Virus record (IMG/VR): IMGVR_UViG_3300033069_001536
Coordinates: 2,386-66,385 of that record
Source: a virus
Lineage: Duplodnaviria; Caudoviricetes
Length of the DNA: 64,000 nt
Direction: 5' to 3' (one strand)
Shown here piece after piece: positions 868 through 27,828 of the stretch. How positions within the stretch are numbered: position 1 is the stretch's first letter; each line of letters starts with the position of its first letter. A program made the position numbers and the translations under genes. Below the pieces are notes generated by a model. The model was not told where the DNA came from and searched no databases. It saw only the letters and a list, made by a program, of their open reading frames with translations.

Positions 868-951
868 TATTGTTAATAAATAGTACAAAAAACTGTAGTC
901 GGCTGTTTTTATAGTATAATTTATTGCCCCACATTGCACCTGACACTCAGT

Positions 952-1053
952 ATGAAAAACATTCAACCAATTCCCCTTCCTATACATTGCCTTTCAGGAG
1001 CGTTCTGTTCCGACTGGGTGTCCTTTGTATATGGAGGGGACTTGTTGTTATGA
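952..1053 (+). CDS. 33-aa leader uORF coupled to replication initiator
   Basis: MKNIQPIPLPIHCLSGAFCSDWVSFVYGGDLLL*; its TGA overlaps the initiator ATG (ATGA at 1050-1053). Confidence 0.5.
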   Translation: MKNIQPIPLPIHCLSGAFCSDWVSFVYGGDLLL

Positions 1054-1775
1054 AGTATTATCTACACGACACCAATTCTTTTAATGACGAAAAAATTACC
1101 TTGCTGTTCCAGAAATTCGGATATGAGGGATTAGGATTATTTTATACTTTTTTAGAAAAGATCGCAGCCCAGGAGCAACCGATTAGTACTGAAGTTTTAA
1201 AGTTTCAATTAAAGGTGGGAAAGAAGCTGAATAAATGCTGGAACTTTATGGAAGAAATCGAATTAATTTCATCAAACAATGGTGAAACTTTCAACAAACA
1301 ATTGCTAAACTTTAGTGAAAAGTTCGAGATAAAAAAAGAAAAAAACAGAAACCGTGTTGCCAAATGGCGTGATAATGAGAAGAATAAGAAATCTGTAACG
1401 CATTACGAAAGCGTACGTAACGCCCCTAAAGTAAAGTTAAGTAAAGTAAATACTACAAACGATGATTGTAATGATGGGGAATCTCTAAATGACTACATAC
1501 AAATGTTCAATCAGGTCATTGGCAAATCCTTTAAACCAATTGAAAAGCTCCGGGACAAATGGTTGCTGCTTAAAAAGCAAGGTTACAGTATAGCGGATGT
1601 AAAAAAGGCACTGACCATAGCAATGAAAGATAAGTACCACCTAGAAACTCATTACAAGTACTTAACACCAGAATTCTTTACCCGAACCGACAAACTCGAC
1701 AAATGGCTTAATACTACCGAAAATACAAATAACACCTCTTATCAATCATCTGTTAATCTTTCAGGACAACTCTAA
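1050..1775 (+). CDS. phage replication initiator (DUF4373/Lin1244-like N-terminus, conserved phage C-terminal domain)
   Basis: MKYYLHDTNSFNDEKITLLFQKFGYEGLGLFYTFLEKI N-terminus, low-complexity linker, C-terminal YLTPEFFTR..KLDKWLN; directly upstream of helicase; start re-called at 1050. Confidence 0.75.
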   Translation: MKYYLHDTNSFNDEKITLLFQKFGYEGLGLFYTFLEKIAAQEQPISTEVLKFQLKVGKKLNKCWNFMEEIELISSNNGETFNKQLLNFSEKFEIKKEKNRNRVAKWRDNEKNKKSVTHYESVRNAPKVKLSKVNTTNDDCNDGESLNDYIQMFNQVIGKSFKPIEKLRDKWLLLKKQGYSIADVKKALTIAMKDKYHLETHYKYLTPEFFTRTDKLDKWLNTTENTNNTSYQSSVNLSGQL

Positions 1776-2722
1776 TGGCAAAGCACTGGTATAGCATTCA
1801 GGAGTGTATTCCGCAGGTCCAGCAGTTGTATAAAACCGGACTGACCAGAGGCGCTTATTGTGGATTTAATTCGGTAGATCCATATTACACCATAAAACCG
1901 GCAGGAACAACCTATTTGTATGGAACTCCGACATCCGGGAAAACGGAGTATTGGCTGGAAGTATTGATGTCAACTACCGAAATGTATGGATGGAACCATG
2001 TACTGTATCTTCCGGAGTCAGGATCCAAAGACGAAGTAGTAGCCGAACTGATCTCAAAATACGCAAGAAAGCCGTTTTTTAAAGATTATCAGAACCATAT
2101 TAGTCAGGATGAGCTTGACAGATATTTGCAGACACTAAACGAGCACTTTTTTATCATTGATCCAAAAGACCAATCTCTCAGCATTGAAGAGTTCTTTGAG
2201 CAGGTAGATGACATTGAAAGAGAAACCGGAAAAAAAATTGATACGACCGTAACAGATCCGTGGAACGAATTAAAGCATGATTATTCTGAGGAAGGGCGCC
2301 AGGATCTTTATATCGAAAGTCGCCTGGGATTTATTCGGGCAAATGCTATCGTTAAGAAAAGGCATAATTGCATCATTACACATTCTCGTGATCAGCATCC
2401 GGTAGAAGGAGTGGATATAAACAATAAGAAAGTGTTTTATCTGCCACCACCAACAGCCAGGGAGATTGCCGGCGGTCAGGCATGGTACCGGAAAGCAATG
2501 ATGCTTGTTTGTGTATGGAGACCACCACACAATATTATTGATCCGGGAACTGGTGCTCCGTTTGCAGATAATGAAGTTCATATCATTGTCCAGAAGTTTA
2601 AGCCAAAGGGAACAGGTAAAAAAGGAACGGCAAAATTATATTACGATATTCAACAAAACAGGTATTATGAATTCGAAAACGGAGAAAGAAGATACTCAGG
2701 AAAGAAAGCGTATCGCTATTAA
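1775..2722 (+). CDS. DnaB/Twinkle-like replicative helicase (RecA-fold domain only)
   Basis: Walker A YGTPTSGKTE, Walker B VTDPWN, ITHSR and IIVQKFK motifs; TAATG coupling to initiator. Confidence 0.8.
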   Translation: MAKHWYSIQECIPQVQQLYKTGLTRGAYCGFNSVDPYYTIKPAGTTYLYGTPTSGKTEYWLEVLMSTTEMYGWNHVLYLPESGSKDEVVAELISKYARKPFFKDYQNHISQDELDRYLQTLNEHFFIIDPKDQSLSIEEFFEQVDDIERETGKKIDTTVTDPWNELKHDYSEEGRQDLYIESRLGFIRANAIVKKRHNCIITHSRDQHPVEGVDINNKKVFYLPPPTAREIAGGQAWYRKAMMLVCVWRPPHNIIDPGTGAPFADNEVHIIVQKFKPKGTGKKGTAKLYYDIQQNRYYEFENGERRYSGKKAYRY

Positions 2723-3760: not shown

Positions 3761-4161
3761 AAGTAAAGATCTGTTCCAGGTGTGAAAAGCCAGTAGAGAA
3801 GTATGGAAATGCTTTTAAGAAACTTTGTGTCTTTTGCAATCGGGACCGGTTGAATGAGAATAAGCCTAAGAAGTATAGCAGTATAAAGCCGAAGTTCAAA
3901 GAAGCCAGTGGTGAAGCAGAATTATTTTTGCAGCTGTGGAAAGAACGAAAGCATGAATGTACGAACTGTGGAATATATTTGGGAGAAGAAATGAAAACTT
4001 GGTTTTTCTCACATATAAAAGGTGGCAAAGGTGGAATTCATAGTGAATTGAGACTTGATCCGACTAACATCGTTTTCCATTGTTGGGACTGCCACCACTG
4101 CTGGGGCGATCGTGGAATTGACGCATTTAACGCAAGAAAAGACATTAATAGAAAATCATGA
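3757..4161 (+). CDS. HNH/NinG-like Zn-binding nuclease
   Basis: N-terminal CxxC..CxxC, then CTNCG..SHI..LRLDPTNIVFHCWDCHH. Confidence 0.65.
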   Translation: MKVKICSRCEKPVEKYGNAFKKLCVFCNRDRLNENKPKKYSSIKPKFKEASGEAELFLQLWKERKHECTNCGIYLGEEMKTWFFSHIKGGKGGIHSELRLDPTNIVFHCWDCHHCWGDRGIDAFNARKDINRKS

Positions 4162-7919: not shown

Positions 7920-8123
7920 TTAATTAATTATTTTTTCTACTATAATTCCCGTAGGAATTAACACAATGCACATCAGCATAATTGCAGCGCAAAAACCTCT
8001 TGCGTCAGGATTCCATGTTTTAGGGCTTAAATCATATTGACCTAATGCAAACGCTAGGTAAACCATTAGTGCAACAAATATTCCTATTAGTAATCCGAGT
8101 AATGCAATTTTTAGTGTTTTCAT
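7920..8123 (-). CDS. small two-helix membrane protein
   Basis: two hydrophobic segments in 67 aa. Confidence 0.55.
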   Translation of the reverse strand: MKTLKIALLGLLIGIFVALMVYLAFALGQYDLSPKTWNPDARGFCAAIMLMCIVLIPTGIIVEKIIN

Positions 8124-8170
8124 TTTCCTTTGTGTTAAATGATTTGTTATTTGATTAAGGGGTTAGTAGA

Positions 8171-8428
8171 TTAGAATGGTAATTCTGACTTTGGTTCAAA
8201 ATAAGCCTCGACTGTTTTTAGTTCCTGAATATGATTAAACACATCGTTGAATTGACCTATTGATATTTCACAAGTTCTGTAAGTGCCATCATCGTTACGC
8301 ATTAAAAACTCTATAAATTGAACCTCGTGTCTGTGTGCAAACTTTTTGCCGTCATTTCTTCCATTCTCAATCTTTACGAAATTTGATTTTATGAAAGCGT
8401 TTGCTTTTTGATTGTAGTTTATTTCCAT
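8171..8428 (-). CDS. hypothetical protein
   Basis: 85-aa ORF ending in ELPF. Confidence 0.55.
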   Translation of the reverse strand: MEINYNQKANAFIKSNFVKIENGRNDGKKFAHRHEVQFIEFLMRNDDGTYRTCEISIGQFNDVFNHIQELKTVEAYFEPKSELPF

Positions 8429-8458
8429 CTTCTGTTCTGTTTAATTGATTAATTACGG

Positions 8459-8689
8459 TTAGAGTCTGTTACGGTGTCTTTCAATTTGAAGATCTACTTC
8501 TGAAGAGGCGATCTGGTACTTAGTAGTTTGGATGGATTGTCTTATTTTTTTCCTTATTTCCTTGTAATTTACTAGATTTTCGGTGATTGAATTGAGTTTT
8601 TCCTGTAACTCTTCTAACCTTTTTTCCCTGCGTTGTAGGGTTTTTTCGATACGCTGTACTTTAGTTAGTGAGAAATTGCGTTGTTTCAC
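8459..8689 (-). CDS. coiled-coil hypothetical protein
   Basis: 76 aa, heptad-rich. Confidence 0.55.
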   Translation of the reverse strand: MKQRNFSLTKVQRIEKTLQRREKRLEELQEKLNSITENLVNYKEIRKKIRQSIQTTKYQIASSEVDLQIERHRNRL

Positions 8690-9213
8690 AGGTCCTCCTT
8701 TTCCATTTGAGAAAGCTCTTGTTCTTTTTGGGAAAGGTAAGAAGGATTCCAGAATGCTATCGTTTCAATTTTGAGGTCTATTCGTTCACAGAGTCCTCCA
8801 TACCAATAAGCGATATCTTCATTACTCTCAATTAAGCATCCCAAGTGAATGTTAATTGCTTTGGAAGAAACTTTGATCAATTCTTTGATGATTGCGTGTT
8901 TGGAATCGAAGTCTCCTGAGAGTGCCTGTAATGCGTTTTTAAAGGCATATATCCGGTCGTAGAAATCATAGAGTTCTTGTAACTGCTTATTTATGCTGTA
9001 AACGAATTCTTTAGCTTGTGGGAGTGCTTTACCTGGGAACTGAGTATTGGTGTAATCCTTTAGATATCGGGTCTCTCCTGTGGCTGTATCTTTCACATAT
9101 ACCGTGATCAGATCATAGAGTGCTCCTGATTCTGTTACCGGTAGCAGAGCTTGCTTTCCATCTACTATGCCAAGGTCCTTGTATAGCGTAAAAATGAGTT
9201 TTAGTTTTTTCAT
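8686..9213 (-). CDS. hypothetical protein
   Basis: 175-aa ORF, ATGA-coupled. Confidence 0.6.
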   Translation of the reverse strand: MKKLKLIFTLYKDLGIVDGKQALLPVTESGALYDLITVYVKDTATGETRYLKDYTNTQFPGKALPQAKEFVYSINKQLQELYDFYDRIYAFKNALQALSGDFDSKHAIIKELIKVSSKAINIHLGCLIESNEDIAYWYGGLCERIDLKIETIAFWNPSYLSQKEQELSQMEKEDL

Positions 9214-9425
9214 GCGAAGTTTTCCTTTCCTAGTATTTGGGCTATTTCCTGTTTGTTGGAATCTTGCATGAGAAGTAGTTTTTTAGCGAGTTTCGTACAA
9301 TCTTCGTCAGCCTGATACCAGAAGTAGTCGGTAGTGAGTGATTCCCGGAGCCTGACTGCCGATCTTAGTTTTACAAGACCGGTGTAGTAATCATCGTTTC
9401 GGGTAATGTCGGTGGCGAAGGTCAT
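9210..9425 (-). CDS. hypothetical protein
   Basis: 71-aa ORF, ATGA-coupled. Confidence 0.55.
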   Translation of the reverse strand: MTFATDITRNDDYYTGLVKLRSAVRLRESLTTDYFWYQADEDCTKLAKKLLLMQDSNKQEIAQILGKENFA

Positions 9426-9826
9426 AGTGCTACCTCCTTAGACTTCTGAATTATTTCGAATGATTGCATGATTGCCGCAATGAGGCAAGAGTAGTAATCT
9501 CTGTGATCATCTTCGAATTCGATTTCCTCTTCTACAAGATCAGAAATGATGGTATATTCAAACTTTCCCGGCGTTTCGTATGATTCCAGTACAGTGATCT
9601 CAATTTTGTATTCAGTTCTCAGGAAGTCGAGGGCTTGTTGGTAGATGGGAGCATGGCAATTAGAATTTAAGTTGCTGTTATAGTCCATGGAAGTATTTTC
9701 CGGATTAAACATTACAATAACCGCTTCAGGTGGAACGTTGTTATACCATCCAAAGCATTGATTTTTAAACCCTAAATTCTTTAGGATTACTGCAATTTCA
9801 TAAGGAACAAATAAGTCTTTTAACAT
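9422..9826 (-). CDS. hypothetical protein of a recurring Bacteroidota-phage type
   Basis: FVPYEIAVILKNLGF..APIYQQALDFLR pattern. Confidence 0.6.
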   Translation of the reverse strand: MLKDLFVPYEIAVILKNLGFKNQCFGWYNNVPPEAVIVMFNPENTSMDYNSNLNSNCHAPIYQQALDFLRTEYKIEITVLESYETPGKFEYTIISDLVEEEIEFEDDHRDYYSCLIAAIMQSFEIIQKSKEVAL

Positions 9827-9888
9827 GGTGTTTGTGGTTTTTTACTGTTAGTGATTTAATGAGTTTCGTTTAACTGTAACCGGCAGAA

Positions 9889-10113
9889 CTACAGAGCTAA
9901 CTGTTGTAATTCATGATTCCAGAGGTGAGCTGTATTACCTGAGTCAAGTAATACCTGGCAGAGTGCTGTTTCATGAGTAGCCGGAACTACTTCCTGAACT
10001 TTTCCTTTCTGACCTATGATGGTCCGGTCTGCTGTGAGATCCTGAGAAGGTAGTACTTTTACTCTTGTTCCTTTACCGGGAATAATGGTTTCGTTTAAAT
10101 GGAGTTTTTTCAT
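9889..10113 (-). CDS. small SH3/KOW-like hypothetical protein
   Basis: GTRVKV..GQKGKV..CQVLLDSG beta-rich pattern. Confidence 0.5.
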   Translation of the reverse strand: MKKLHLNETIIPGKGTRVKVLPSQDLTADRTIIGQKGKVQEVVPATHETALCQVLLDSGNTAHLWNHELQQLAL

Positions 10114-10415
10114 GGGGTGGTGAGGTTAGTATTATTAACAAAAACTTCTTCGATTAGATTTTTTTCAGAAACGCCGGTTTGAAACTTGATAAGAGCATCA
10201 ATCGCTTCTTCCGGAGTGTTATGGTCTCTTGTCCAGTGTCCCGAAACATAAGCAGAGAATAGGGTTTTGCCAAATCCGTCCATTGAAACTTCTACTTTCC
10301 AATGGTTTCTCTCGTATTTTGTAGCAATATCTGCTACTGAATTAGCAAAATCACTAAGGGAGATGGTCTTTTTTCCGTAGGCAATTCTAAGTAAAAAGTT
10401 GAGTATCTTTTTCAT
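10110..10415 (-). CDS. hypothetical protein
   Basis: 101-aa ORF, ATGA-coupled. Confidence 0.55.
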   Translation of the reverse strand: MKKILNFLLRIAYGKKTISLSDFANSVADIATKYERNHWKVEVSMDGFGKTLFSAYVSGHWTRDHNTPEEAIDALIKFQTGVSEKNLIEEVFVNNTNLTTP

Positions 10416-10594
10416 TTCTTAAACTCCTCTCCATTAGGCAGGAATTCAATCTTAGAATGCCTCATTAGTTCGATAATGTAGTCTTCTGTTTCCAGTTCGA
10501 GTACGTGTTTTCGTTTAAATTCTGTGATTGCGAAGTTCTTGGCCTTGTGGCGAAGATCATCAATGGTGTGGAGCTTTATCCGGACGGTTCTCAT
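10412..10594 (-). CDS. hypothetical protein
   Basis: 60-aa ORF, ATGA-coupled. Confidence 0.55.
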   Translation of the reverse strand: MRTVRIKLHTIDDLRHKAKNFAITEFKRKHVLELETEDYIIELMRHSKIEFLPNGEEFKK

Positions 10595-10734
10595 TTGATA
10601 ATTTTTTTAAGTGTTACCGGATCAATAGTATAGCTGATACCGCTGGCTATTTTGGGGAGTGGGTTTCCGTGAATCTCTTTGGCCTTTCTTACGGCTGTGG
10701 CAAGATCGTGATTGGTGGTAAAGTTTGTGTTCAT
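10591..10734 (-). CDS. small hypothetical protein (47 aa)
   Basis: ATGA-coupled on both sides; not in ORF track. Confidence 0.5.
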   Translation of the reverse strand: MNTNFTTNHDLATAVRKAKEIHGNPLPKIASGISYTIDPVTLKKIIK

Positions 10735-13576: not shown

Positions 13577-15645
13577 ATTTGCTTGTTAAGTACTACAGTA
13601 ATAGTTTGAACACCAGTTGAACGAAAGGCAGAGAGGAAAGCGTCCGGATCATTCTTGTACATGTAGCCGTTAGATTCAACAAAGTTTCTGAAGTCCTGAA
13701 TCTTTGCCCGTTCTCCGTCTTTGTTTCCTGCCATTATTGCTACCAGTCTACCGCCTTCGTTTAAGAGACTGAATGCGTGCATAACATGGTCAATATCTTG
13801 TAAGTTTTCGAAAGGCGGATTCATAACAATACGATCGTATTTTCCTGAATGCTGTAGAAAGTCCTCGTTAACAGTATCAAAGCCTTTAATCTCCAGCACT
13901 TCTGCAAGTGAGTTGCATTGCTCAATTACTGTTAATTTATTCTCCGGGTGCGCTTCTCTGATCGACTGGGCTATGTGTCCCAATCCTGCGGAGGGTTCTA
14001 AAACTGTGTTTCCTTCTACTATTTCCGCTTCTTCAACTATTTTGCTGGCAAGGTCTTCAGGTGTTGGGAAAAATCCGTCTATTTTTTTACCTATAAAAGA
14101 TCTTTCGAGTTGTTTTAGTTTCGCTTCCTGTACTTGCTCCGGTGTTTTATCTGCTGTTAGTGAGATCATCTCACGAATAGCCGCCCGAAGTGCCGGAAGT
14201 GTATCTAAATCAAGTCTTTTTAATCTTTTGATCTCTGCCAGGCTGTTTTTATATCGCTCTGCACTCCATTTATCCCAAAGTACAGAGGTCTGACAAAATA
14301 CTGTTTCGTAGTCTTCTAACAAGCTCCATGAGTCAATAGTAAGAGTCTCTTTACTTCCCAATTTGCTTAAAATCCGATTGGAAGCTAATTTTTTGCCGTC
14401 TGTCTCCCTGCAAATGTGTAAATGTTTTAATACATTGCTTGCATAGATCACCGGATAAGGAATAGAAACGTAAATGGCGGTTTCTTCTGTTACTTCGTAG
14501 TTCTCCGATCTGATATTTTTCTCCCTCATGTGCTTGTATTTGGCTGCGCTTAATACATGTTTGAGGGTCTCCAGTTCTGTAATAGTTGACAATTTATTGA
14601 GGTGGTTAATTGTTCCGGCTTCGATTCCATTTGCAATATTTATGAGGGTTTTACCAAATGCAATTGAATTAGAGGCTTTTTGCTCTGCGCTTGCTGCCTG
14701 TGCTGCTCTTCTGTGTGTGTTGTCTTTGCGGTCCCGGTTTAACTCCTCTTGCCCGTCTTCAACTAATTTAGTGCCTTTTTCTCTTAAAATCTCGGCTCTG
14801 GTCTGTTCTTTGTGTTCAATGCGTGCTTCGACTTCCTCCTTATTACTGCCTCCGTCTATGAACTTTTCAGCACTTGATTTGTCAAGGAAAGTAAAACCGG
14901 CTATGGCTCCGCCTTTATTGTAACTGCTGTAATAGCCTCCAAATAACTTTGCACGCTGCGACAAACTTTTAAAAACATCTGATTCAACACGATTATTCAA
15001 TGAGCATACAAATAAATCGTGGCCTTTCTGGGTGTGTTTCGTTTCGTTTAATGTGAATTCTTCCCCTACCGATTGAACATTTTTGATCTGTTGTTGTTCT
15101 TTCTGGGCGTGGTGTGTGATCCCTGCAAGCTCATCATATCTTTTTAACTGTTCGGCTGTTAACTTTGCCTCACCAAAAATTCGAATAAAACTTTTGAATT
15201 CTTCTAAGGTCTCCGGATTGGTTAACATTTTCTTTCTGGCTGCAATCGCTGCTTTTTTCTCCTCTGCCCACTTTAAAAAATCCGCTTCTGTGACTGAATT
15301 CAAAACTCTTTGTTGTGCCTGATCTCCTGTTTCTGCTCCTTCTCCGTGTAAAAAATAGCCAACGGTTTTACCGACAAGGAAATAAGATTCTAGGCCGTCC
15401 AAAATATCGTCTATAAAATCCGCTTTTTTAGTAGAATACGTATAATTGAGCATCTTTTTAAGATCAACAACTTTTAACAGGTTTAACTCTGCTGTATAGG
15501 CTGCTTTGTTCTCTTTGAAGGTGTTAAAAAGTACATGATAATTGCAAAAATCGCCTTCGTGCATAGAAAATAAGGCCTTTTTGAAGTCTTGAAGATTCAA
15601 GTTTTTAAATTCTGTAGTTGATTGTAGGTTTAATTCTGCTTGCAT
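13573..15645 (-). CDS. N6-adenine DNA methyltransferase with long helical N-terminal region
   Basis: C-terminal FFPTP, VLEPSAGLGHI (motif I), IVMNPPF (motif IV), GGRLVAIM. Confidence 0.85.
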   Translation of the reverse strand: MQAELNLQSTTEFKNLNLQDFKKALFSMHEGDFCNYHVLFNTFKENKAAYTAELNLLKVVDLKKMLNYTYSTKKADFIDDILDGLESYFLVGKTVGYFLHGEGAETGDQAQQRVLNSVTEADFLKWAEEKKAAIAARKKMLTNPETLEEFKSFIRIFGEAKLTAEQLKRYDELAGITHHAQKEQQQIKNVQSVGEEFTLNETKHTQKGHDLFVCSLNNRVESDVFKSLSQRAKLFGGYYSSYNKGGAIAGFTFLDKSSAEKFIDGGSNKEEVEARIEHKEQTRAEILREKGTKLVEDGQEELNRDRKDNTHRRAAQAASAEQKASNSIAFGKTLINIANGIEAGTINHLNKLSTITELETLKHVLSAAKYKHMREKNIRSENYEVTEETAIYVSIPYPVIYASNVLKHLHICRETDGKKLASNRILSKLGSKETLTIDSWSLLEDYETVFCQTSVLWDKWSAERYKNSLAEIKRLKRLDLDTLPALRAAIREMISLTADKTPEQVQEAKLKQLERSFIGKKIDGFFPTPEDLASKIVEEAEIVEGNTVLEPSAGLGHIAQSIREAHPENKLTVIEQCNSLAEVLEIKGFDTVNEDFLQHSGKYDRIVMNPPFENLQDIDHVMHAFSLLNEGGRLVAIMAGNKDGERAKIQDFRNFVESNGYMYKNDPDAFLSAFRSTGVQTITVVLNKQI

Positions 15646-15667
15646 TTTTTATCCGCCTGGCTGTCAT

Positions 15668-15682
15668 CGGCTGCGGCTGCCG
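15668..15682 (-). promoter_or_regulatory. conserved leader hairpin, copy 3
   Basis: minus strand CGGC-AGCCGCA-GCCG, 22 nt before ATG 15645. Confidence 0.7.
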
Positions 15683-15701
15683 GGTTTTAAGTTGTTATAA
15701 A

Positions 15702-15941
15702 TTATGCGTTTTTTAATTGTCCTTTTCGGTATTCTTTCCCAGCGTGCTCAGGTAAAACAATTTGAAGTCCGGTAGTGCTGTCCATTATTGGCGCTAAGCA
15801 TGTGCCGTTATCAAAAATCATTTTGTAGGCTTGTCCCGGCTTTGATCCGTTCACTCCCATTGCAAAATATACCCCTTCCATATTTGGTTGTTCTTGCTTG
15901 CCTTTCTCGCTGTGCTCAAAATAGCATTTAGTGTTGTACAT
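15702..15941 (-). CDS. hypothetical protein
   Basis: 79-aa ORF in leftward run. Confidence 0.55.
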   Translation of the reverse strand: MYNTKCYFEHSEKGKQEQPNMEGVYFAMGVNGSKPGQAYKMIFDNGTCLAPIMDSTTGLQIVLPEHAGKEYRKGQLKNA

Positions 15942-15945
15942 GATT

Positions 15946-16143
15946 TTAGGCTTTATCGGTTAGAACTATTTTAAACTCTCTCCACCATGAGCCTATATTA
16001 TGCGGCTCTCCTTGATCGTTAACGGTTTGGCAGTCCATTAGTCCGGCTTCGGTCTTTACGTCCTTATTTACTTGATATTGACGGCCTTTAGTAAAACATT
16101 TACCTTTATTGTAAAGGTCTTTTTTTGCTTCTATTATTGTCAT
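15946..16143 (-). CDS. hypothetical protein
   Basis: 65-aa ORF preceded by leader hairpin. Confidence 0.6.
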   Translation of the reverse strand: MTIIEAKKDLYNKGKCFTKGRQYQVNKDVKTEAGLMDCQTVNDQGEPHNIGSWWREFKIVLTDKA

Positions 16144-16160
16144 TTGATCCCGTCTTTTTA

Positions 16161-16175
16161 CTTCTGCGGCTGAAG
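16161..16175 (-). promoter_or_regulatory. conserved leader hairpin, copy 4
   Basis: minus strand CTTC-AGCCGCA-GAAG, 17 nt before ATG 16143. Confidence 0.7.
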
Positions 16176-16203
16176 GGTTTTAGATTAAGTGAGTAGATAA
16201 AGA

Positions 16204-16506
16204 TTAGTTAATAGTTAATTGAAGTAAGCGCTTACATTGCTTGTCTTGTTCTTCCTTGCTGATTGAAACAGTTCTATTTATCCATGTTCCACCTTCCGGT
16301 ATGTGACAAGGCCAGCCAACAGTATTATTTATATGATTCCAAGCCAATGACATTGCCCAATCTTCTGTGATCTCCTGAACTCCAAGCCCGTAACGTCTGC
16401 AATATAGCTTACCGTCCGAACCTTTATAAACTTTGCAGTCATCCGCTTTGACATTTACCCAAGTGGTAAAAAGATAGTGTTGTGTAGGATTGATTGAAGT
16501 GTTCAT
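16204..16506 (-). CDS. hypothetical protein
   Basis: 100-aa ORF preceded by leader hairpin. Confidence 0.6.
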   Translation of the reverse strand: MNTSINPTQHYLFTTWVNVKADDCKVYKGSDGKLYCRRYGLGVQEITEDWAMSLAWNHINNTVGWPCHIPEGGTWINRTVSISKEEQDKQCKRLLQLTIN

Positions 16507-16525
16507 TGTTTGCGTGCCTGTTATA

Positions 16526-16540
16526 ACTCTGCGCCTGAGT
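16526..16540 (-). promoter_or_regulatory. conserved leader hairpin, copy 5
   Basis: minus strand ACTC-AGGCGCA-GAGT, 19 nt before ATG 16506. Confidence 0.7.
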
Positions 16541-16548
16541 GTTAAGTA

Positions 16549-16812
16549 TTAATTAATAGTAAGATACTGCTTGTAAGTATTTCCAGTCTTTGCAGAAGTC
16601 CGGACGATAAAAAACTTTCCTTTACCTGATTTGAAGATAGGATAAACAACTCCTTTTTTATCTTCAAAGGTTTTGCCGGTGTTCACTGCTTTAACAGTCT
16701 GTGAACTGTCAGAACTGATTGAATAGTGACCTTTAGAGTTGATCTTAGCGAGTTGCTGCGCTTGGCTGCTGACTGCAATAAATAAGAATAGGATTGTGAA
16801 TAGTGTTTTCAT
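16549..16812 (-). CDS. small secreted protein with signal peptide
   Basis: MKTLFTILFLFIAVSSQA|QQ SPI-type signal; start re-called at 16812. Confidence 0.65.
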   Translation of the reverse strand: MKTLFTILFLFIAVSSQAQQLAKINSKGHYSISSDSSQTVKAVNTGKTFEDKKGVVYPIFKSGKGKFFIVRTSAKTGNTYKQYLTIN

Positions 16813-16850
16813 TTTGTGGTGTATTTGTGAATGATTATCTGATACAATTA

Positions 16851-16880
16851 TACGACAACATACGACAACATACGACACTA
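16851..16880. repeat. 3x 10-bp tandem repeat in putative early promoter
   Basis: tacgacaaca tacgacaaca tacgacacta. Confidence 0.75.
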
Positions 16881-17149
16881 TAAGTAAGATTTTATTGGCT
16901 ACAATATCAATCAGTTAGCAAAAATATTCTACTTCATCAATATACAAACGCCCAAAATCACGTCAGATTTTGCTCACCCTGCAACATGATTCAATAAAAG
17001 TCATTCAATGAAACCGGCCCGAACCAAGTCCGCAGAACCAACAAAACAAACTAAACATTAAATAAGATATCCTTAGTTAACTATAAGAGCTAAAGAGTAA
17101 ATAAAGAGACAAGACAAATAAAAAAAAAGAATACAAGCAAAGAAGTAAA

Positions 17150-17632
17150 TTAAGGCTTTGCAGGAATAGAGTAATTAGGATAGTCAACTCCAAAAGAAGC
17201 TAAGAAGGATTCCATAAAAGGCATATCAACTGCGTTTCTGTTATATAAATGGGCTGAAACAACTGATTTTTTATACTTTTTCATCTTTTTAATGTGTTCC
17301 GGCATATTAGCTTCAATAGAAAAGTCTTTGTTAATCAGATCTTCAAGGTTAATACCCCAATAATAAGCCAGGTAAAACAAATAATACAACGATAAAGGCC
17401 TGTAATCATTCAATTTATTAGTCTCTAATAAGTTTATTCCATCTTTACTTGTCTTGAAACTGTATTTAGTCATTAGATCACTTACAAGGTCATCAGCACT
17501 TAAACCACAATATATCCTAATACATCTTAAATTGTGTCCTACGGGCTTTAAAAAGCGGCTATAATGGCTAAATATTATCTTTCTTAATCCTTCGTCCATT
17601 TTAACTGGGTAGAATACTTTCCTTTTAGCCAT
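17150..17632 (-). CDS. XRE-family HTH transcriptional regulator (repressor-like)
   Basis: GHNLRCIRIYCGLSADDL..INLLE..LFYLAYYWGINLEDLI HTH pattern; start re-called at 17632; TATTTTTG box at 17664-17671 (minus). Confidence 0.65.
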   Translation of the reverse strand: MAKRKVFYPVKMDEGLRKIIFSHYSRFLKPVGHNLRCIRIYCGLSADDLVSDLMTKYSFKTSKDGINLLETNKLNDYRPLSLYYLFYLAYYWGINLEDLINKDFSIEANMPEHIKKMKKYKKSVVSAHLYNRNAVDMPFMESFLASFGVDYPNYSIPAKP

Positions 17633-17842
17633 AAATTTTATATTGATTTCTATTAATATCACACAAAAATACAAACCGTTTGCATCCGATGTGAAAAAAG
17701 TTGTCTCCATGCGGTGGCGCACCCTGACTCACTGCCTGATTATCAATCAGTTATATTTTCACCTATTTTTACTATTTCCGGATCATTCAGAGTCAACCAA
17801 TACTAATTAGAATCAGTCTAAACAAGGCGAATAATACTACCT

Positions 17843-17870
17843 TTGTCCCATAACTATTATTATGTTAAGT
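17843..17870 (+). other. dif-like XerC/XerD recombination site
   Basis: TTGTCCCATAA-CTATTA-TTATGTTAAGT; 11-6-11 layout, XerD arm 10/11 identical to E. coli dif TTATGTTAAAT, CATAA inner XerC arm. Confidence 0.75.
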
Positions 17871-18223
17871 AGAAGGTATTCATTTTAGCTCAATAACAGT
17901 GATTCATTATTTATCTTATCAATATTGCCTTGCTGACTGTATTCTGATAGTGGAATAATGTTGCAATTCATTAAAGTGGAGTGAATGGATCAGTAAAAAG
18001 TTGATCCGGTTTTTCAATCCAGGATTGCAGAGAGAAGAACGGGGGGACGTTTTTAAATCGAAAGCCGGTTTCGTGGGATGGGGCGCCAACCACTCATAAA
18101 TACGCTATTTCCTATTAAGAGGTACGGGGGTAGTCTGTAATACACAGAAACAAGCCGCCTTTTGCCATACGACCTCTACCTGCCCTCTTATGCCCAAAAA
18201 GTGCTGAGTAGTGTTAAATGGCT

Positions 18224-18231
18224 TATATTTG
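18224..18231 (+). promoter_or_regulatory. -7 promoter box
   Basis: TATATTTG 17 nt upstream of ATG 18249. Confidence 0.55.
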
Positions 18232-18248
18232 CTTTAAATTAGAAAAAG

Positions 18249-18476
18249 ATGATAACAGCAGTAATTTCACATGACAATGATGTTGCCGGACTTTTTAATC
18301 TGTATTTAACAGAGGCGGCTGATAACAAGTATTACGAATTTTCGATAAAAGACGGGATTTTAGTTCGAACAGATAAAAGCGATCGGTTTTCGGTTATTAC
18401 TCCTTTGCTGAAAGGTAGTAAGGAAGATATTGAGAAAGTGACAAGTTTATTTAAGGAACCTTTTAAGTTTGAATAG
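18249..18476 (+). CDS. hypothetical protein
   Basis: 75 aa, first gene after promoter box. Confidence 0.55.
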   Translation: MITAVISHDNDVAGLFNLYLTEAADNKYYEFSIKDGILVRTDKSDRFSVITPLLKGSKEDIEKVTSLFKEPFKFE

Positions 18477-18669
18477 TATGTATCAGGTAATAGAACAGAC
18501 TTACGAGGAGAAGGTAGAAATGTACCGGAATATTGACAAGGAAGAGTTGATCAGTATGTTAATTCAGGCGAATTTGGTTATTTCTTCACTGAAGCCGGTT
18601 GTTTCTTATGTGGATGAGCCTAAGAGTTTTACTATTGGAGATTCTGGTCTTGTGTATGAATTAGTTTAA
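18469..18669 (+). CDS. hypothetical protein
   Basis: 66 aa, overlaps previous stop. Confidence 0.55.
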   Translation: MNSMYQVIEQTYEEKVEMYRNIDKEELISMLIQANLVISSLKPVVSYVDEPKSFTIGDSGLVYELV

Positions 18670-18762
18670 TTCAGTCGAATCTGACGGAATAAGGATTATC
18701 TTTGTTTTGTCTCTGAACCAGTAATTAGCTGGTGTAGGAAACGCTCTACAATCTTGCTGGAT

Positions 18763-18796
18763 AAAAGCCTTCGATATAACAATTGGAGGCTTTTTT
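18763..18796 (+). terminator. intrinsic terminator
   Basis: AAAAGCCTTCGAT / ATTGGAGGCTTTT stem with G-U pairs followed by T-run. Confidence 0.65.
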
Positions 18797-19049
18797 ATTT
18801 GGACTCATTCTAAACTGAGTTGTTACGTATTATGTAATAGGTGAAATAGTGCTTCCGCCGGTTCTGACTGATCGATTTTGATTAAAACAGAAGTGTTAAA
18901 ATTGATTTGAAAAAAGTTTTATCTGTACGATGGAACGACCGCATTTTTGAATCAGAATCGCCGCTTTTGAGTGTTTTTGGAAATGTTAAAATCGGCTATT
19001 TTTGTTGATAATTCTCCGTATGTATTCGGATATATGGTGAATAATGGTT

Positions 19050-19057
19050 TATCTTTG
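19050..19057 (+). promoter_or_regulatory. -7 promoter box with upstream TGTTGATAA
   Basis: TATCTTTG; TGTTGATAA at 19003-19011. Confidence 0.6.
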
Positions 19058-19078
19058 GGAGATAAAACCAAAAAGAAG

Positions 19079-19498
19079 ATGATCAAAGCGTCAGAATTAA
19101 GAATTGGGAATTTACTAGAGTTCTCCAATGGCATTGAGCCAGCTAAAATAGTAATGGTAGGCAGGAGATTTTTTTCATCTGCGGCAATTGAGAAGGAAGA
19201 TGGGGATTTTAATGTAACTCCTTATTATCGAGGGATTGTTCTTACCGAACATTGGCTTATCCGGTTTGGGTTTTTCAAGTACAATAATGCTTGGGTGCTG
19301 AGTACTCCGAAAAGCAATTCTATTGAATTTGAGTTTAGTATATGGCAGGATCTGAGCTATAATACCGGGGAGATCAAGCCGGAATTGAAATATGTGCATC
19401 AATTACAGAACTTTTTTTCCTCTTTGATGGGCAAAGAACTTGTCCTAGACTCAGTTCCCACCTCTTCCACTGCTCCCGACAGCACCACCGCAAAGTAA
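19079..19498 (+). CDS. hypothetical protein of a recurring Bacteroidota-phage type
   Basis: MIKASELRIGNLL..LTEHWLIRFGF..LKYVHQLQNFFSSL; start re-called at 19079. Confidence 0.65.
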   Translation: MIKASELRIGNLLEFSNGIEPAKIVMVGRRFFSSAAIEKEDGDFNVTPYYRGIVLTEHWLIRFGFFKYNNAWVLSTPKSNSIEFEFSIWQDLSYNTGEIKPELKYVHQLQNFFSSLMGKELVLDSVPTSSTAPDSTTAK

Positions 19499-19576
19499 TC
19501 TGACTAATTTTCAGTTACTTAGTACAATTGTTAATAAGATGCTTACGTATATTATCGGATAGCGTCGTGTGTGTGG

Positions 19577-19584
19577 TACATTTG
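19577..19584 (+). promoter_or_regulatory. -7 promoter box
   Basis: TACATTTG 4 nt before ATG 19589; TGTTAATAA at 19529-19537. Confidence 0.6.
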
Positions 19585-19588
19585 AGGT

Positions 19589-19933
19589 ATGGAAAACGAA
19601 GAAAGAAAGCCAAAGTATCAGGTAGGTGATCAGGTAAGAGTTGTAAATTATGGCTCTTTGATTTGGATCAGTAAGAATCAGACTCCAGAAGAACTGAAGA
19701 TGTATGAGAATATGTTGAAAAACATCTATCATGATGACGAAAAGGTGTGGTGGGTAGATATGGGTAAAGATCTTATTGGCAAAGTAGGAACGGTTGGCAC
19801 TGTTTCGGTAACTCAAGGAGTTCCGGCATATTCATTAGATGGCATTCCGGAGAAAGCATCCTGGTATCAGGAAGGACAATTAGAATTTGTTACCGGGAGA
19901 AGAGGCGGCAAGTCGAAAAAAGAAATAATTTAA
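19589..19933 (+). CDS. hypothetical protein (SH3-like)
   Basis: KYQVGDQVRVV..IGKVGTV..AYSLDG..SWY. Confidence 0.6.
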   Translation: MENEERKPKYQVGDQVRVVNYGSLIWISKNQTPEELKMYENMLKNIYHDDEKVWWVDMGKDLIGKVGTVGTVSVTQGVPAYSLDGIPEKASWYQEGQLEFVTGRRGGKSKKEII

Positions 19934-19952
19934 CTCTATAAACCATACCACC

Positions 19953-20300
19953 ATGAGACTAACCCGTTACCAGATCGATGCGATCATTTTGCAGGTCAGG
20001 AGTGATGAAAAAAAGCAAACAGCTTTAGGATTAAGTAAGATCCGCAAGCAGTATTCCGGTAATGCTAAAATTCTAGCTGCCAAGTACCACAAGTCTTTAC
20101 AACAGATTCCGGCATCAGTACGCCAATTGCTGAATATTGAGTTCTATTCCATTGGTGCTATTCAGGAAAGATTGATCAAGCAGATTGTCCCGAAAGAAAA
20201 GGCGATTTCTTATGAAGACCTCCGCCGCAAGATCATCCTGGCCTCCATCGATGCCACTACAGTAGAGGAATTAAAACGTAAACTGAATATTAAATTCTAG
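19953..20300 (+). CDS. hypothetical protein
   Basis: 115-aa ORF in rightward run. Confidence 0.55.
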   Translation: MRLTRYQIDAIILQVRSDEKKQTALGLSKIRKQYSGNAKILAAKYHKSLQQIPASVRQLLNIEFYSIGAIQERLIKQIVPKEKAISYEDLRRKIILASIDATTVEELKRKLNIKF

Positions 20301-20301
20301 G

Positions 20302-20682
20302 ATGCCGATAGACTACAAGAAATATCCCGTTAATTGGAAAACAGAAATCCGTCCTGCAATATTAAAAAGGGCGAATGATTGCTGTGAGTTTTGCGGGTTA
20401 GAAAATTATTCTATTGGATACCGAAACGAAAATAATATTTGGAGTGAAATAGAGAAATCGTTTGCCGGAGATATGATTGCTGAGGACGCAAGAGAAATGG
20501 GGTATAAGGTTATTAAAATAGTTCTCACCATCGCACATCTTGACCACGACATTACTAATAACGATTACAACAATCTCAAAGCCCTCTGTCAAAAATGCCA
20601 CCTGAATTATGACAAAGCACATCACTCAAAGAACAACAGAGTAACACGAAATTTAAAAAAAGGATTACAAAATTTATTCTAA
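20302..20682 (+). CDS. HNH endonuclease
   Basis: CEFCG..VLTIAHLDHDITNNDYNNLKALCQKCHLNYD. Confidence 0.85.
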   Translation: MPIDYKKYPVNWKTEIRPAILKRANDCCEFCGLENYSIGYRNENNIWSEIEKSFAGDMIAEDAREMGYKVIKIVLTIAHLDHDITNNDYNNLKALCQKCHLNYDKAHHSKNNRVTRNLKKGLQNLF

Positions 20683-21069
20683 ATGAAAACCTCCCTTACC
20701 CTAAAATCCATTTCCTACCAGCTTCAGACACATGATTCTTTCATGGTAGTTGATAACGATAAAAGTACGGATATAGAAACAGTGTTCAAGCCGCTGTTTG
20801 TAAAGAAAGATCTTCCGGTAGTGGAATTTACCATCCGTATCCAGACGGTAGAAAAGTTTGAAGTCTCCCGGTATTACATGGTCCACTTTGAAGGTCATGA
20901 TCACACTCCGCCGTTTGTGTTCAGAAGTATCTCAGAGGACTTATTAGAGTGTACAGGAACTCTGAATAACTTAGATTTGTATGGAATAAGCGATGCAGAA
21001 ATTTCTCCGGTAGTGACCGGTGCCGGTATCCGGGAAAGTAGTTTAACAGGTATAACAGAACATTTATAA
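20683..21069 (+). CDS. hypothetical protein
   Basis: 128-aa ORF in run. Confidence 0.55.
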   Translation: MKTSLTLKSISYQLQTHDSFMVVDNDKSTDIETVFKPLFVKKDLPVVEFTIRIQTVEKFEVSRYYMVHFEGHDHTPPFVFRSISEDLLECTGTLNNLDLYGISDAEISPVVTGAGIRESSLTGITEHL

Positions 21070-21084
21070 CTAAAAAAAATAAAA

Positions 21085-21612
21085 ATGATACTATTAGGAA
21101 TTATTATCGTGATTTTAGTCTGTATTGGAATAGCAAAGCTGATTGATAATGCAGAAAAAAGAGAGGAAGGACGCAAACTTGCAGCAGCAGATCCTCAGCA
21201 ACGTGGGCTTTATGGAGGCATAGGTTCAGGTTCATTATATCATACAATGGATACAGTTTCTATCAAAAGAGAAAAGGTGGCGAGGACTTCAACTCAGGCA
21301 GAAAGAGATGATGATGACGAAGAGCAAAGAAAAAAGAGAAGCAGAGCGTATCCAGATCCTTTAATGCCAATTGTACCTCTATATGTTGATATTCCGAATA
21401 CGGGTTATATTGCAGCAGGAGATCCGGTTGGTTCAGAATTACACTTTTCAGGTTTTGGAGGTGGCGAGTCTGGTGGAAGTGGAGCCGGCGGATCATATAG
21501 TGAAAGCGGAAGTTCAAGTTCTTCTTCCGGGTCTTCTTATTCAGACTCAGGTTCAAGTTATTCTGATTCAGGTAGCAGCAGTTCTGATTGTTCATCATCT
21601 TCATCTGACTAA
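21085..21612 (+). CDS. membrane-anchored protein with Gly/Ser-rich low-complexity tail
   Basis: N-terminal TM helix; FSGFGGGESGGSGAGGSYS..SSSSD tail. Confidence 0.65.
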   Translation: MILLGIIIVILVCIGIAKLIDNAEKREEGRKLAAADPQQRGLYGGIGSGSLYHTMDTVSIKREKVARTSTQAERDDDDEEQRKKRSRAYPDPLMPIVPLYVDIPNTGYIAAGDPVGSELHFSGFGGGESGGSGAGGSYSESGSSSSSSGSSYSDSGSSYSDSGSSSSDCSSSSSD

Positions 21613-21614
21613 TC

Positions 21615-21914
21615 ATGACCACTAACGCAACCATCGGCCTTATCAGTGCACTCTGTTTAGGACTTGTTATCCTCTGGGATTACTTCAGGAGAAAGAAAGA
21701 GAGAGTGATTTGGTTGAAGACGTATAATAAAACTCCGGATTATGGAGTGGAAGAAGGGAAGATTCATCACGTTTTTCAAAAGCCGTTCACATATATATGG
21801 CATAATGGAAATGCTCCTGAAGGCGATCTTCCCACTCACGAAAAAGTCCTCGAAGACATTAAAAAAGTAGAAAAGATCAATGACACACCACACCCTCCAC
21901 AAGATCACCGCTAA
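21615..21914 (+). CDS. membrane-anchored hypothetical protein
   Basis: N-terminal TM helix followed by RRKK. Confidence 0.5.
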   Translation: MTTNATIGLISALCLGLVILWDYFRRKKERVIWLKTYNKTPDYGVEEGKIHHVFQKPFTYIWHNGNAPEGDLPTHEKVLEDIKKVEKINDTPHPPQDHR

Positions 21915-22101
21915 GATCCGTAAACTTCGTATTGAAGCCGGTTATAGCAGCCATGTAGACTTTGCAGAAGAAGTTCCCATGAACAGAAGCTCTTACTGTA
22001 AACTGGAAGGCGCTGCTCCCAATATGACCATGAAGACTCTGCTCAGGGTGCTGGCAGTACATAATCTAACATTAAAAGAATTTTTTAACGATATAGAATA
22101 A
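21880..22101 (+). CDS. XRE/Cro-like HTH DNA-binding protein
   Basis: KIRKLRIEAGYSSHVDFAEEVPMNRSSYCKLEG..NMTMKTLLRVL. Confidence 0.8.
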   Translation: MTHHTLHKITAKIRKLRIEAGYSSHVDFAEEVPMNRSSYCKLEGAAPNMTMKTLLRVLAVHNLTLKEFFNDIE

Positions 22102-25945: not shown

Positions 25946-27828
25946 GTATTGAAATCATAAATAAGGACAACCGAAAGTGTCCTTTTATTTTTACAGGTCA
26001 TCCCAAAAACTTCAAGACTAAGTTAGAAGAGCAGAAGTATTGGGCTGAAGAGTACAAGCGCTGGCTAGAAGGGTATAATGGATTAACAGGAAGACATTAT
26101 TTCTATTTAAGTATGGGGCACCTGAAGCCAGTTCAGGGTATGCCGATTAGACCGGTATGGAGAGATGTGGATGCGATGATTTTTGAATCCGATGCAGAAA
26201 CACGCAGAATTGGTCACACACTTAATATAATAAAGCGAAGAGAGGTCGGATTGACTTCTGTTTATGGCGGTAATGAACCGATCTATAATTGTCTGACAAT
26301 GCCAGGATCAATAAACTTGATTACTTCCGCAGATAAGACAAGGGTGAAAAACCTTTTTTCAGATAAAACAATGTTCTTTTTTGATCATCTTGAGTTACCG
26401 GATTATATGATTCCGCACAAGAAGTCTGAACGTCAGGAAGGATTTTTGAACTTGGCTTCCAAAAAGAACAAAGGTGGTGTCGGTGCAGGATCTCAAGTGT
26501 ATTGTCTGGAAACTGCCGATAATGATAAAAGCGCAAAAAGATTCGAAACTTTCCGGGCAATGAGTATCTTTTTGGATGAATTATTCTTACATCCAAGAGC
26601 TGACACGGTATTTAAAAGTTCTCAGGCCTGTCTTCGTCAGTCTTTCGAAACCATCGGGCACATGGTAATTGGTGGAAGTTGTGGTGGAGAAACCGCAGAT
26701 GAAATTGCTACTCTGAAGAAAAATGCCAACATGGTTGAAGAGATGATCGGTGATGCCGATGCTCTTGATATGACTGTTGTTTTTATTCCGGGAACATTGG
26801 GGATAAATGGCGCAGATGAATTGGATGACAATGGAAGAAAGACAGGAAACCGACTTTCTTTTATGGAAAACGGTTATTCAAATGTTGAAAAAGCGAAGGA
26901 ATGGATTGAAAAGAAAAGAACAGCATTAAAAAGAGCGAAGGATCAGTCTCACTATAACAACTTTGTCAAGTCCTATCCTCTGACAATTGAAGAAGTTTTT
27001 GAAATAAATCGGGCTGGTATCATGCCTCCGGAAGTCTACGAAAATCTTCAGGCTGCGAAAATTAAGATTGAAGAGAAAGGTGGAAACAAGTTCTTTTCCA
27101 TGCGGAAAGATTCTCAGACAGAGAAATTCGAAATAAAAGAGAATCCGAAAGGTAAATTTGTGATCATTGCGGATCCGGATCCCGTTAAAACCTATTTAGC
27201 CGGGATTGATCCTATTCCTTTTAATCAATCTTCCATAGCAGACGAAGGTTCAGAATATGCTTTGATGGTGTATTGTCTGGAAGATGAAGCGCCGGTAGCG
27301 TATTATGCAGAGCGAAATCTGGACGCTGATTACTGTGTTGGTCAGGGAATTTTGCTGCAAGAACGATATAAGTCGATAGAATTTCCAGCAGGGGCACCAG
27401 CAATGATTGAAAATAATCGAGGTGAGGTGGCTATTCGTATTTACAAAGAAGAAGAAAAGTATGTTTTACTTGCTAATCGGCCTAAGAATCTGGGCTTTAT
27501 CTACGAGGAGAAAAGTGCCGGCGAAAAGAAAGGTTGGTACAGTAATGATAAAACGATTGCCAGGGCGAATACTTATGCAGTAAATATTTTAAAATCCTAC
27601 GGAGATCGAATTGGACTTCGAAGGCTCGTAGATGAAGCGGCTAGATGGCCAACAGGTAACAATGACTTGTTCGATGCACTGAAAAGTCTTGGACTATTCC
27701 GGGAAGAGTACATATTGGGAAAGAAAAAGACTCAGAAGATTGGAGTGAAATATGTAGACATTCCGTATTACGCTCCTGATAAAAGTGGTCGCATGGTTCG
27801 TCACTGGAAAAGACAGGAAATCAAATGA
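25942..27828 (+). CDS. terL: terminase large subunit
   Basis: IIKRREVGLTS Walker A-like, IFLDE Walker B, RNase H-like AGIDP and NNDLFDA; upstream of portal. Confidence 0.85.

Follow-up and report, generated by a model that had tools for sequence, protein, structure and literature searches.

The divergent switch and the site it holds

The stretch of DNA analysed (the window; 64,000 nucleotides) comprises bases 2386-66385 of one linear IMG/VR virus record, IMGVR_UViG_3300033069_001536, which is 66,385 bp long, has a CheckV completeness of 92% and showed no terminal repeats. A non-coding region from which genes diverge on the two strands holds a 28-mer at 17843-17870, TTGTCCCATAA-CTATTA-TTATGTTAAGT, present in one copy in the whole record. 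The 28-mer has an 11-6-11 layout, with two 11-bp arms around a 6-bp centre and an inner inverted repeat, CATAA/TTATG. The features of the site, the switch and the replication genes are listed below in window coordinates.

3-431: RusA, just upstream of the replication module
924-2722, plus strand: replication module, with an initiator-like protein (Lin1244_N, phrog_2562) and a helicase-like protein (phrog_5482, phrog_239)
17150-17632, minus strand: P0124, the first leftward gene, 160 aa, with a predicted XRE-like helix-turn-helix fold (AlphaFold model, mean pLDDT 69)
17633-18248, no strand: 616-bp non-coding divergent switch region holding the site, without a credible open reading frame
17838-17845, plus strand: TACCTTTG box lying over the left arm; variant contigs from each of the four runs have G at 17839
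17843-17853, plus strand: XerC-type arm TTGTCCCATAA, with the same letters as the left arm of the single-copy chromosomal site in each of 12 Bacteroidota genomes
17854-17859, plus strand: 6-bp central region CTATTA, unlike the chromosomal spacers paired with the same arms
17860-17870, plus strand: XerD-type arm TTATGTTAAGT, 11/11 with the predicted dif arm of Pedobacter heparinus and matching 12 Bacteroidota genomes
18038-18130, plus strand: G-run element ACGGGGGGAC ... ATTTCCTATTAAG..CGGGGG, right of the site, shared with positions 2345-2440 of the related contig L188
18249-18476, plus strand: first rightward gene, 75 aa, no family match

The switch region is bounded by the leftward gene starting at 17632 and the rightward gene starting at 18249, and is the sole divergent switch in the genome. 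Rightward genes run from 18249 to the record end and then from the record start to window position 4161, and the leftward arm runs from 17632 down to 4156. A preliminary description of this DNA, made from the letters alone, had reported a dif-like 11-6-11 site in an unintegrated state at the strand-switch of a phage; the placement at the switch was borne out, as was the unintegrated state, with phage genes flanking the site on both sides. The window held no other match to the 28-mer with up to three mismatches allowed, shuffled sequences gave zero matches, and no second full or half site was found in the phage. The GC and AT skews revealed no origin or terminus and tracked the direction of transcription only. 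Repeats within the non-coding region were short matches of two copies each. A reading of the switch region as RNA was rejected, since there were no Rfam or tRNA matches and the predicted fold was no better than that of shuffles (z = 0.16).

The identity of the phage was assessed from its structural and replication genes. The portal protein matched phrog_6547, and the sole named matches of the large terminase (TerL) were crAss-like phages at 22-24% identity (E-values 1e-9 to 2e-6); TerL is to this extent distantly crAss-like, and the affiliation first proposed may hold as a distant one. The phage encodes two DNA methyltransferases and a junction-endonuclease-like gene. An initiator-like and a helicase-like protein are both present, in keeping with the initiator/DnaB replicon that had been described, and this gene content suggests a host-polymerase-dependent replicon that passes through circular forms. 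Tyrosine integrase (PF00589), serine recombinase (PF00239) and rve transposase (PF00665) domains were all absent from the 66,385-bp record (92% complete), which extends to the whole record the earlier remark that no integrase was in view; PF00589 was likewise absent from three distant relatives. No ParA (CbiA/ParA), ParB (ParB_N) or XafT-like factor was found in the record. Because partition genes are missing, stable plasmid-like carriage, which had been put forward as a plasmid-like prophage, is unsupported.

The top fold matches of the P0124 model were all XRE-family DNA-binding domains (BldD, C.BclI, CylR2, ComR and TP901-1 CI), with target TM-scores of about 0.64-0.76 (mostly 0.72-0.76) and E-values of at least 0.17. 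P0124 had no Pfam or PHROG match and no significant sequence match to a solved structure, and only four homologues were found, every one on a short contig. These weak scores suggest that P0124 may be an XRE-type helix-turn-helix protein, and to that extent the predicted structure agrees with the XRE repressor that had been placed beside the site.

Match of the site to the chromosomal dif of Bacteroidota

The dif predictions of Kono et al. 2011 for non-Bacteroidia Bacteroidetes were used as a reference (PMC3025954, supplement); the predicted Robiginitalea dif is TTGTCCTATAA-TTTATA-TTATGTTAAAT and the predicted Pedobacter dif is TAGTCACATAA-TTAATA-TTATGTTAAGT. The phage site agreed with each of these at 20/22 arm positions, and its XerC-type arm shared 10/11 bases with the Robiginitalea arm (PMC3025954). 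With the same references, the runner-up position in the 66-kb phage genome reached 16/22, and the maxima of 300 Markov-1 simulated genomes lay between 15 and 19 and never exceeded 19. A chance origin of the dif match is thus excluded. Against the arms of Escherichia coli dif, the site scored 16/22, with 10/11 bases shared in the XerD arm, and E. coli is the wrong yardstick.

In a scan covering one genome per prokaryote species, the exact arms with a free centre were found in 55 stretches of bacterial genomes, mostly Bacteroidota, with the centres TTTATA, TTAATA or TTTACA. In 12/12 Bacteroidota genomes tested (2.3-8.1 Mb; three Saprospiraceae, a Chitinophaga and a Chitinophagaceae among them) the exact arms occurred once per genome even when two mismatches were allowed, and a reversed control gave 0. 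Occurrence once in each genome is characteristic of chromosomal dif. The resemblance is therefore stronger than first stated: not just the XerD arm, which had been called near-canonical, but both arms are identical (22/22) to these single-copy chromosomal sites. Five of the genomes with the same arms each encode an XerD-like protein (317-350 bits) and a second, lower-scoring paralogue detected with the XerD model (244-267 bits), which we read as a probable XerC. Collectively, these data indicate that the 28-mer is, by sequence, a dif-type XerC/XerD core site.

The centre and the surroundings of the phage site are its own. The chromosomal spacers paired with the same arms in the 12 genomes were TTTATA, TTAATA, TTTACG and TTTGCA, and CTATTA was not found as a centre in the bacterial genomes carrying these arms. 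Relative to TTTATA and TTAATA, the centres of a host dif that is itself only deduced, CTATTA is mismatched at the first base on the XerC side and matched at the two bases beside the XerD arm. The flanks of the phage site showed no likeness to host dif flanks. The phage hosts are probably environmental Bacteroidota with the same dif arms. Several of the same-arm genomes are presumably from activated sludge or lakes, going by the isolate names of these metagenome-assembled genomes (MAGs), which fits the habitats of the phage.

Several bacterial loci found in these searches carried additional arms or sites. In an Acidimicrobiia MAG (L043, positions 2500-2570) TTGTCCCATAAGATATATTACGGG stood directly upstream of a dif site; at L047 (2920-2985) a lone TTATGTTAAGT stood 17 bases upstream of the bacterial dif site; and L040 likewise had a partial second arm or site a few bases from dif. 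These partial copies may be scars of earlier Xer-mediated insertions. Four Prevotellaceae MAGs of 2.1-2.6 Mb (G737-G740; loci including L001, L009, L012 and L048) held 19-36 dif-like sites each, with 0 for the reversed control. The repeated form was TTGTCC[CT]ATAA-TTTACA-TTATGTTAA[GCT]T, mostly in inverted pairs with starts 129 bp apart, and in each of these MAGs a single further site, centred on TTTATA or TATATA, has the appearance of the true dif. The pairs recall the pdif modules of Acinetobacter and seem to form a small repeated unit of about 157 bp with inverted Xer sites at its two ends.

Occurrence in other viruses, relatives and strains

Viral contigs were surveyed with a degenerate Bacteroidota form of dif, TTGTNNNATAA-N6-TTATGTTAAR. 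At least 120 contigs matched, as against 3 in the whole collection for the reversed pattern. Many of the matches were elements of 4-7 kb, which were taken as small phages of the type already thought to use Xer (PMC3091885). Thirty of the matches listed were in contigs of 40-287 kb, most with typical dif centres. Of these 30 large records, 29 were searchable, with 19 at least 90% complete and 9 bearing terminal repeats; PF00589 was found in 0/29, a figure that has no matched control set and so does not amount to depletion. None of ten large dif-bearing viral records shared a TerL with the phage studied here.

Among the matches listed from contigs of 40-287 kb, 23/30 sites lay outside any open reading frame of at least 80 aa, where about 9 were expected. 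The gaps that held a site were divergent in 10/20 cases, compared with 10% of other gaps, and had a median length of 616 bp compared with 29 bp for other gaps. Thus, the site in the window is one case of a recurrent feature of large phages.

Two groups stood out among these contigs. In about 13 related viral contigs among the matches listed, several of them from 61-64-kb records, the dif-like site adjoins the same gene set, including a protein of 250-535 aa without a Pfam family (L058, L060, L078, L093, L096, L109, L111, L116, L117 and L120 among them). The dif-like site is syntenically conserved in that phage group. Four jumbo records of 176-287 kb that are 92-100% complete (L066, L094, L106 and L142) carry canonical Bacteroidota dif-like sites with the centres TTTGTA, TTTACA and TTTATG, and no tyrosine integrase was found in them.

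One L199-L167 pair apart, no neighbour gene was found to be common to this phage and other dif-bearing phages, and the neighbour genes belonged to no Pfam family. The exact arms of the phage site were not found in other viral contigs, a blastn search of the site region against the phage collection returned no match, and single-protein scans of viral contigs returned no relative.

Relatives were recognized by their terminase and portal proteins. L188, with a TerL 66% identical, has an ortholog of the P0124 regulator and a syntenic non-coding region of about 840 bp, in which the best score was only 15/22. In three IMG/VR relatives, whose portals are 32-45% identical and one of which is 94% complete, no site rose above the control level. 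The absence of the site from the L188 region and from these three relatives means that the clade can do without it. L199 belongs to a 74-kb contig whose TerL is 34% identical, and carries TTGTCCTATAA-TTACTA-TTATGTTAAAT between genes of its leftward arm, in a gap of 222 bp. The closest relative compared, L187 (TerL 95% identical), begins about 1.4 kb right of the site, and this comparison stops short of the site region. Conservation in relatives, named at the outset as a gauge of the site, is therefore divided: the site is kept in strain variants and has a counterpart in L199, and is missing from L188 and three others.

Two further observations came from these comparisons. The only non-coding parts of the switch common with L188 were the two G-run blocks, ACGGGGGGAC..TTTT and ATTTCCT.TTAAG..CGGGGG, separated by about 70 bp; this element had no Rfam match and its fold was not unusual, and it could be an origin element or a small RNA. 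In L187, the TerL match at 7974-10723 spans 2750 bases as against 1884, and a short second match, to window positions 26062-26126, lies about 800 bases upstream of the main TerL match; the extra match may be a duplicated N-terminal piece or an insertion.

Nine studies of river, freshwater, wastewater and anaerobic-digester habitats yielded metagenomes that contain DNA near-identical to the phage. Assembled Logan contigs of four runs were aligned to window positions 14000-22000, and the best-supported differences are reported here. Three variant haplotypes from the four runs had zero listed changes between 17840 and 17871. To the right of the site there were 14 changes within the next 70 bases, and to its left the sequence was changed or replaced; variant contigs departed from the window at 17839 and again from 17872 on. 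One contig (X16, record 22) had 14 differences in total, all listed between 17872 and 17942, and another that spans the site (X4, record 30) had nine listed differences at 17710-17839 and the next at 17906. Two contigs start at 17840 and 17842. In two runs a joint leaves the window at 17676 and resumes at 17842, so that some strains carry other sequence in place of the 165 bases left of the site. The 28-mer thus stays unchanged while the sequence on either side is swapped or diverges by about 7-20%, and left and right flanks are combined differently around it across the four runs. No loose end or phage-host junction inside the site was listed in the four runs, for which assembled contigs offer weak evidence.

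Beyond the immediate flanks, contigs of several runs depart into unrelated sequence at 17622-17636, 16088-16130 and 20302-20688. These departures indicate that the gene left of 17636 and several small early genes are replaced in other strains, and point to a mosaic early region.

Strain variation also bears on the promoter box that the preliminary description had placed over the left arm. The TACCTTTG box is indeed present at 17838-17845, yet its overlap with the site is not conserved: the A at 17839 is a G in strain variants that retain the site. Since this position varies while the site is kept, the box is not the conserved element. The motif TANNTTTG is also not enriched in the window (43 found and 65 expected), and better-placed -7-like boxes for the flanking genes lie at 17664-17671 (minus strand) and 18224-18231 (plus strand).

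These observations allow us to weigh the explanation that the resemblance to dif is incidental, the palindrome being an operator of the XRE-like protein, a promoter component or a neutral remnant of host DNA. The site does lie between divergent early promoters, adjoins a gene for a predicted helix-turn-helix protein and is overlapped by a -7-like box, and the nearest syntenic relative, L188, has the regulator without the site. However, a 22/22 arm match to a single-copy chromosomal dif cannot be chance, the site is present in one copy only where operators are usually repeated, and it is conserved where the box is not. The same dif form recurs in the survey of viral contigs far above its control (at least 120 against 3), and the flanks are unlike host flanks. 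We consider an incidental resemblance very improbable.

A further proposal is that the site serves exchange or protein loading, and neither resolution nor lysogeny. In the first version, recombination by host XerCD at a fixed module boundary would exchange the left and right genome arms of related co-infecting phages; in the second, bound XerCD would act as a roadblock or unloading point for FtsK or for SMC-type complexes, a role described for XerD sites in Bacillus. Consistent with these proposals are the varied left and right combinations around an unchanged 28-mer in four runs, the preference of large-phage sites for divergent switch points, which are module boundaries, and the patchy distribution in the clade. 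Phages of every size carry such sites, including jumbo phages, in which neither lysogeny nor circle resolution is expected. However, both versions are purely inferential and had no precedent in the literature searched; homologous recombination can also reassort flanks, and contigs may break at any conserved island that has variable sequence on both sides. A role in exchange or loading therefore seems unlikely, although it is less so than an incidental resemblance.

Possible uses of the site and known Xer systems

The preliminary description had further suggested that the phage integrates at the host dif. In such a lysogeny, of the type of integrative mobile elements exploiting Xer (IMEX), the site would serve as an attP for insertion of the circular phage genome at chromosomal dif by host XerCD, and maintenance of the prophage would fall to the XRE-like regulator. 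The perfect host-type arms, the absence of a recombinase from the record and the position of an XRE-fold regulator beside the site at the early switch all fit this proposal, as does the centre unlike that of host dif. In known IMEX attP sites, such as those of the VGJ and TLC phages, a centre differing from host dif is typical. Bacteroidetes microviruses, too, are thought to integrate at dif via Xer (PMC3091885).

Searches for an integrated copy gave no support to this proposal. Neither portal nor TerL patterns picked out a relative of the phage among 185,579 species genomes, nor did a portal profile among 702 Bacteroidota genomes (301 Saprospiraceae and 401 Bacteroidota). The longest contigs of TerL relatives were at most 78 kb, the length of the contig that encodes a 91% identical TerL (P0028), and those of portal relatives were phage-sized except for one of 107 kb. 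Each of the 12 same-arm genomes has one site, so that the hybrid second site is absent from all of them. No junction or loose end inside the site was seen in the four runs, although these were assembled contigs and the evidence is weak. In addition, every candidate host dif has T where the centre begins with C, at the point where XerC would exchange strands; L188 has the XRE-like gene but not the site; such sites are also carried by jumbo phages; and no XafT-like activator was found in the record. Thus, integration at host dif is possible but unsupported by the genomes and contigs searched, and we regard it as fairly unlikely.

In our preferred reading, the 28-mer is a true core site for XerC/XerD that copies the chromosomal dif of Bacteroidota hosts, and the phage lineage would keep it in the non-coding region at its divergent early switch. 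Judging from identity with dif, the left arm would be bound by host XerC and the right arm by host XerD. Because the phage arms are identical to host dif, host XerC and XerD very probably can cut and rejoin phage DNA; that they act on the site in some way is, in our estimate, likely. As the phage has no recombinase and the centre CTATTA is unlike any known host dif, full homology is offered only by another copy of the phage's own site, which points to recombination between phage genomes. Recombination between phage copies would therefore be the most likely use of the site, with an outcome such as dimer resolution or unlinking of daughter circles in a circular replicative form or a non-integrated carrier-state form. 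The replicon so served would rely on the phage initiator and helicase and on the host polymerase. Site-specific exchange between co-infecting relatives could be another outcome, in keeping with the reassorted flanks and the preference for module boundaries.

Several observations count in favor of this reading. The identity of the arms, the uniqueness of the site, its conservation among strains and the absence of a recombinase from the record were observed directly, and we infer Xer binding, catalysis and a biological role from them. The initiator, helicase, RusA and junction-endonuclease-like genes, the spacer unlike that of the host, the site in L199 and the recurrence in viral contigs also speak for it. 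Against it stand the absence of partition genes, the patchy presence of the site in the clade and a record that is linear and 92% complete; nor would a phage packaging from concatemers have an obvious need to resolve dimers. Jumbo phages of up to 287 kb carry such sites too, and circle resolution is a weak rationale there. A bare dif core, such as E. coli dif on plasmids, recombines between as well as within molecules, and the phage core is bare and dif-like rather than of the cer/psi type with fixed accessory sequences. Such a core would not by itself favor monomers. The reading as a genuine Xer core site acting on circular phage DNA, its role in resolution or unlinking included, is accordingly held tentatively, at somewhat short of an even chance.

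A broader proposal would extend to Bacteroidota tailed dsDNA phages in general, from 40 kb to jumbo size. These may routinely borrow host XerCD through a copy of dif at a divergent switch or in another long non-coding region, either for integrase-free lysogeny at dif or for site-specific arm exchange between co-infecting phages; at present we consider this doubtful. The literature searched describes Xer exploitation in inoviruses, microviruses, double jelly-roll phages, plasmids and islands and yielded no report for tailed phages, a limited search that does not prove absence. What the phage carries is an exact copy of the host dif arms that stays intact among diverging strains, and at least 120 sites of this kind occur in viral contigs, this one among them. 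If host XerCD do act on these genomes, tailed phages would have a recombination route that costs them no gene, and lysogeny without an integrase, resolution of circular forms or swapping of arms would be possible. The dif arms of a phage would then also name its host group, giving a new handle for host prediction.

Three known systems can be compared with the site. IMEX elements include the CTX, VGJ and TLC phages of Vibrio, the Bacteroidetes microvirus proviruses (PMC3091885) and dif-type double jelly-roll phages (PMC12715192). Like the phage studied here, these are integrase-less viruses with a dif-like site whose centre does not equal that of host dif. Those described are small ssDNA or tailless phages, or islands, integrated at dif, whereas the carrier here is a large tailed dsDNA phage. 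Unlike them, the phage has one plain duplex site, with no folded hairpin, second site or XafT-like factor, and no integrated copy of it was found in the genomes searched.

In its working, the phage site would come closest to a plasmid Xer site. The plasmid multimer-resolution sites cer of ColE1 and psi of pSC101, on which host XerCD act, resemble the phage site in being dif-like cores on an extrachromosomal replicon without its own recombinase, with a centre that differs from dif; the natural partner is for that reason the sister copy. Both cer and psi depend on host proteins that bind an accessory sequence of about 180 bp beside the XerC arm. In the phage, the XerC-side flank is replaced (the joint from 17676 to 17842) or diverged among strains while the core is unchanged, and this non-conserved flank speaks against a resolution site of the cer/psi type. 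The carrier also differs, being a 66-kb tailed phage without partition genes.

The third system is the chromosomal dif of Bacteroidota itself (PMC3025954). The phage site differs from it in lying on a phage instead of at a chromosome terminus and in having the centre CTATTA in place of TTTATA or TTAATA, and shares with it the 11-6-11 layout, the inner CATAA/TTATG palindrome and identical arms.
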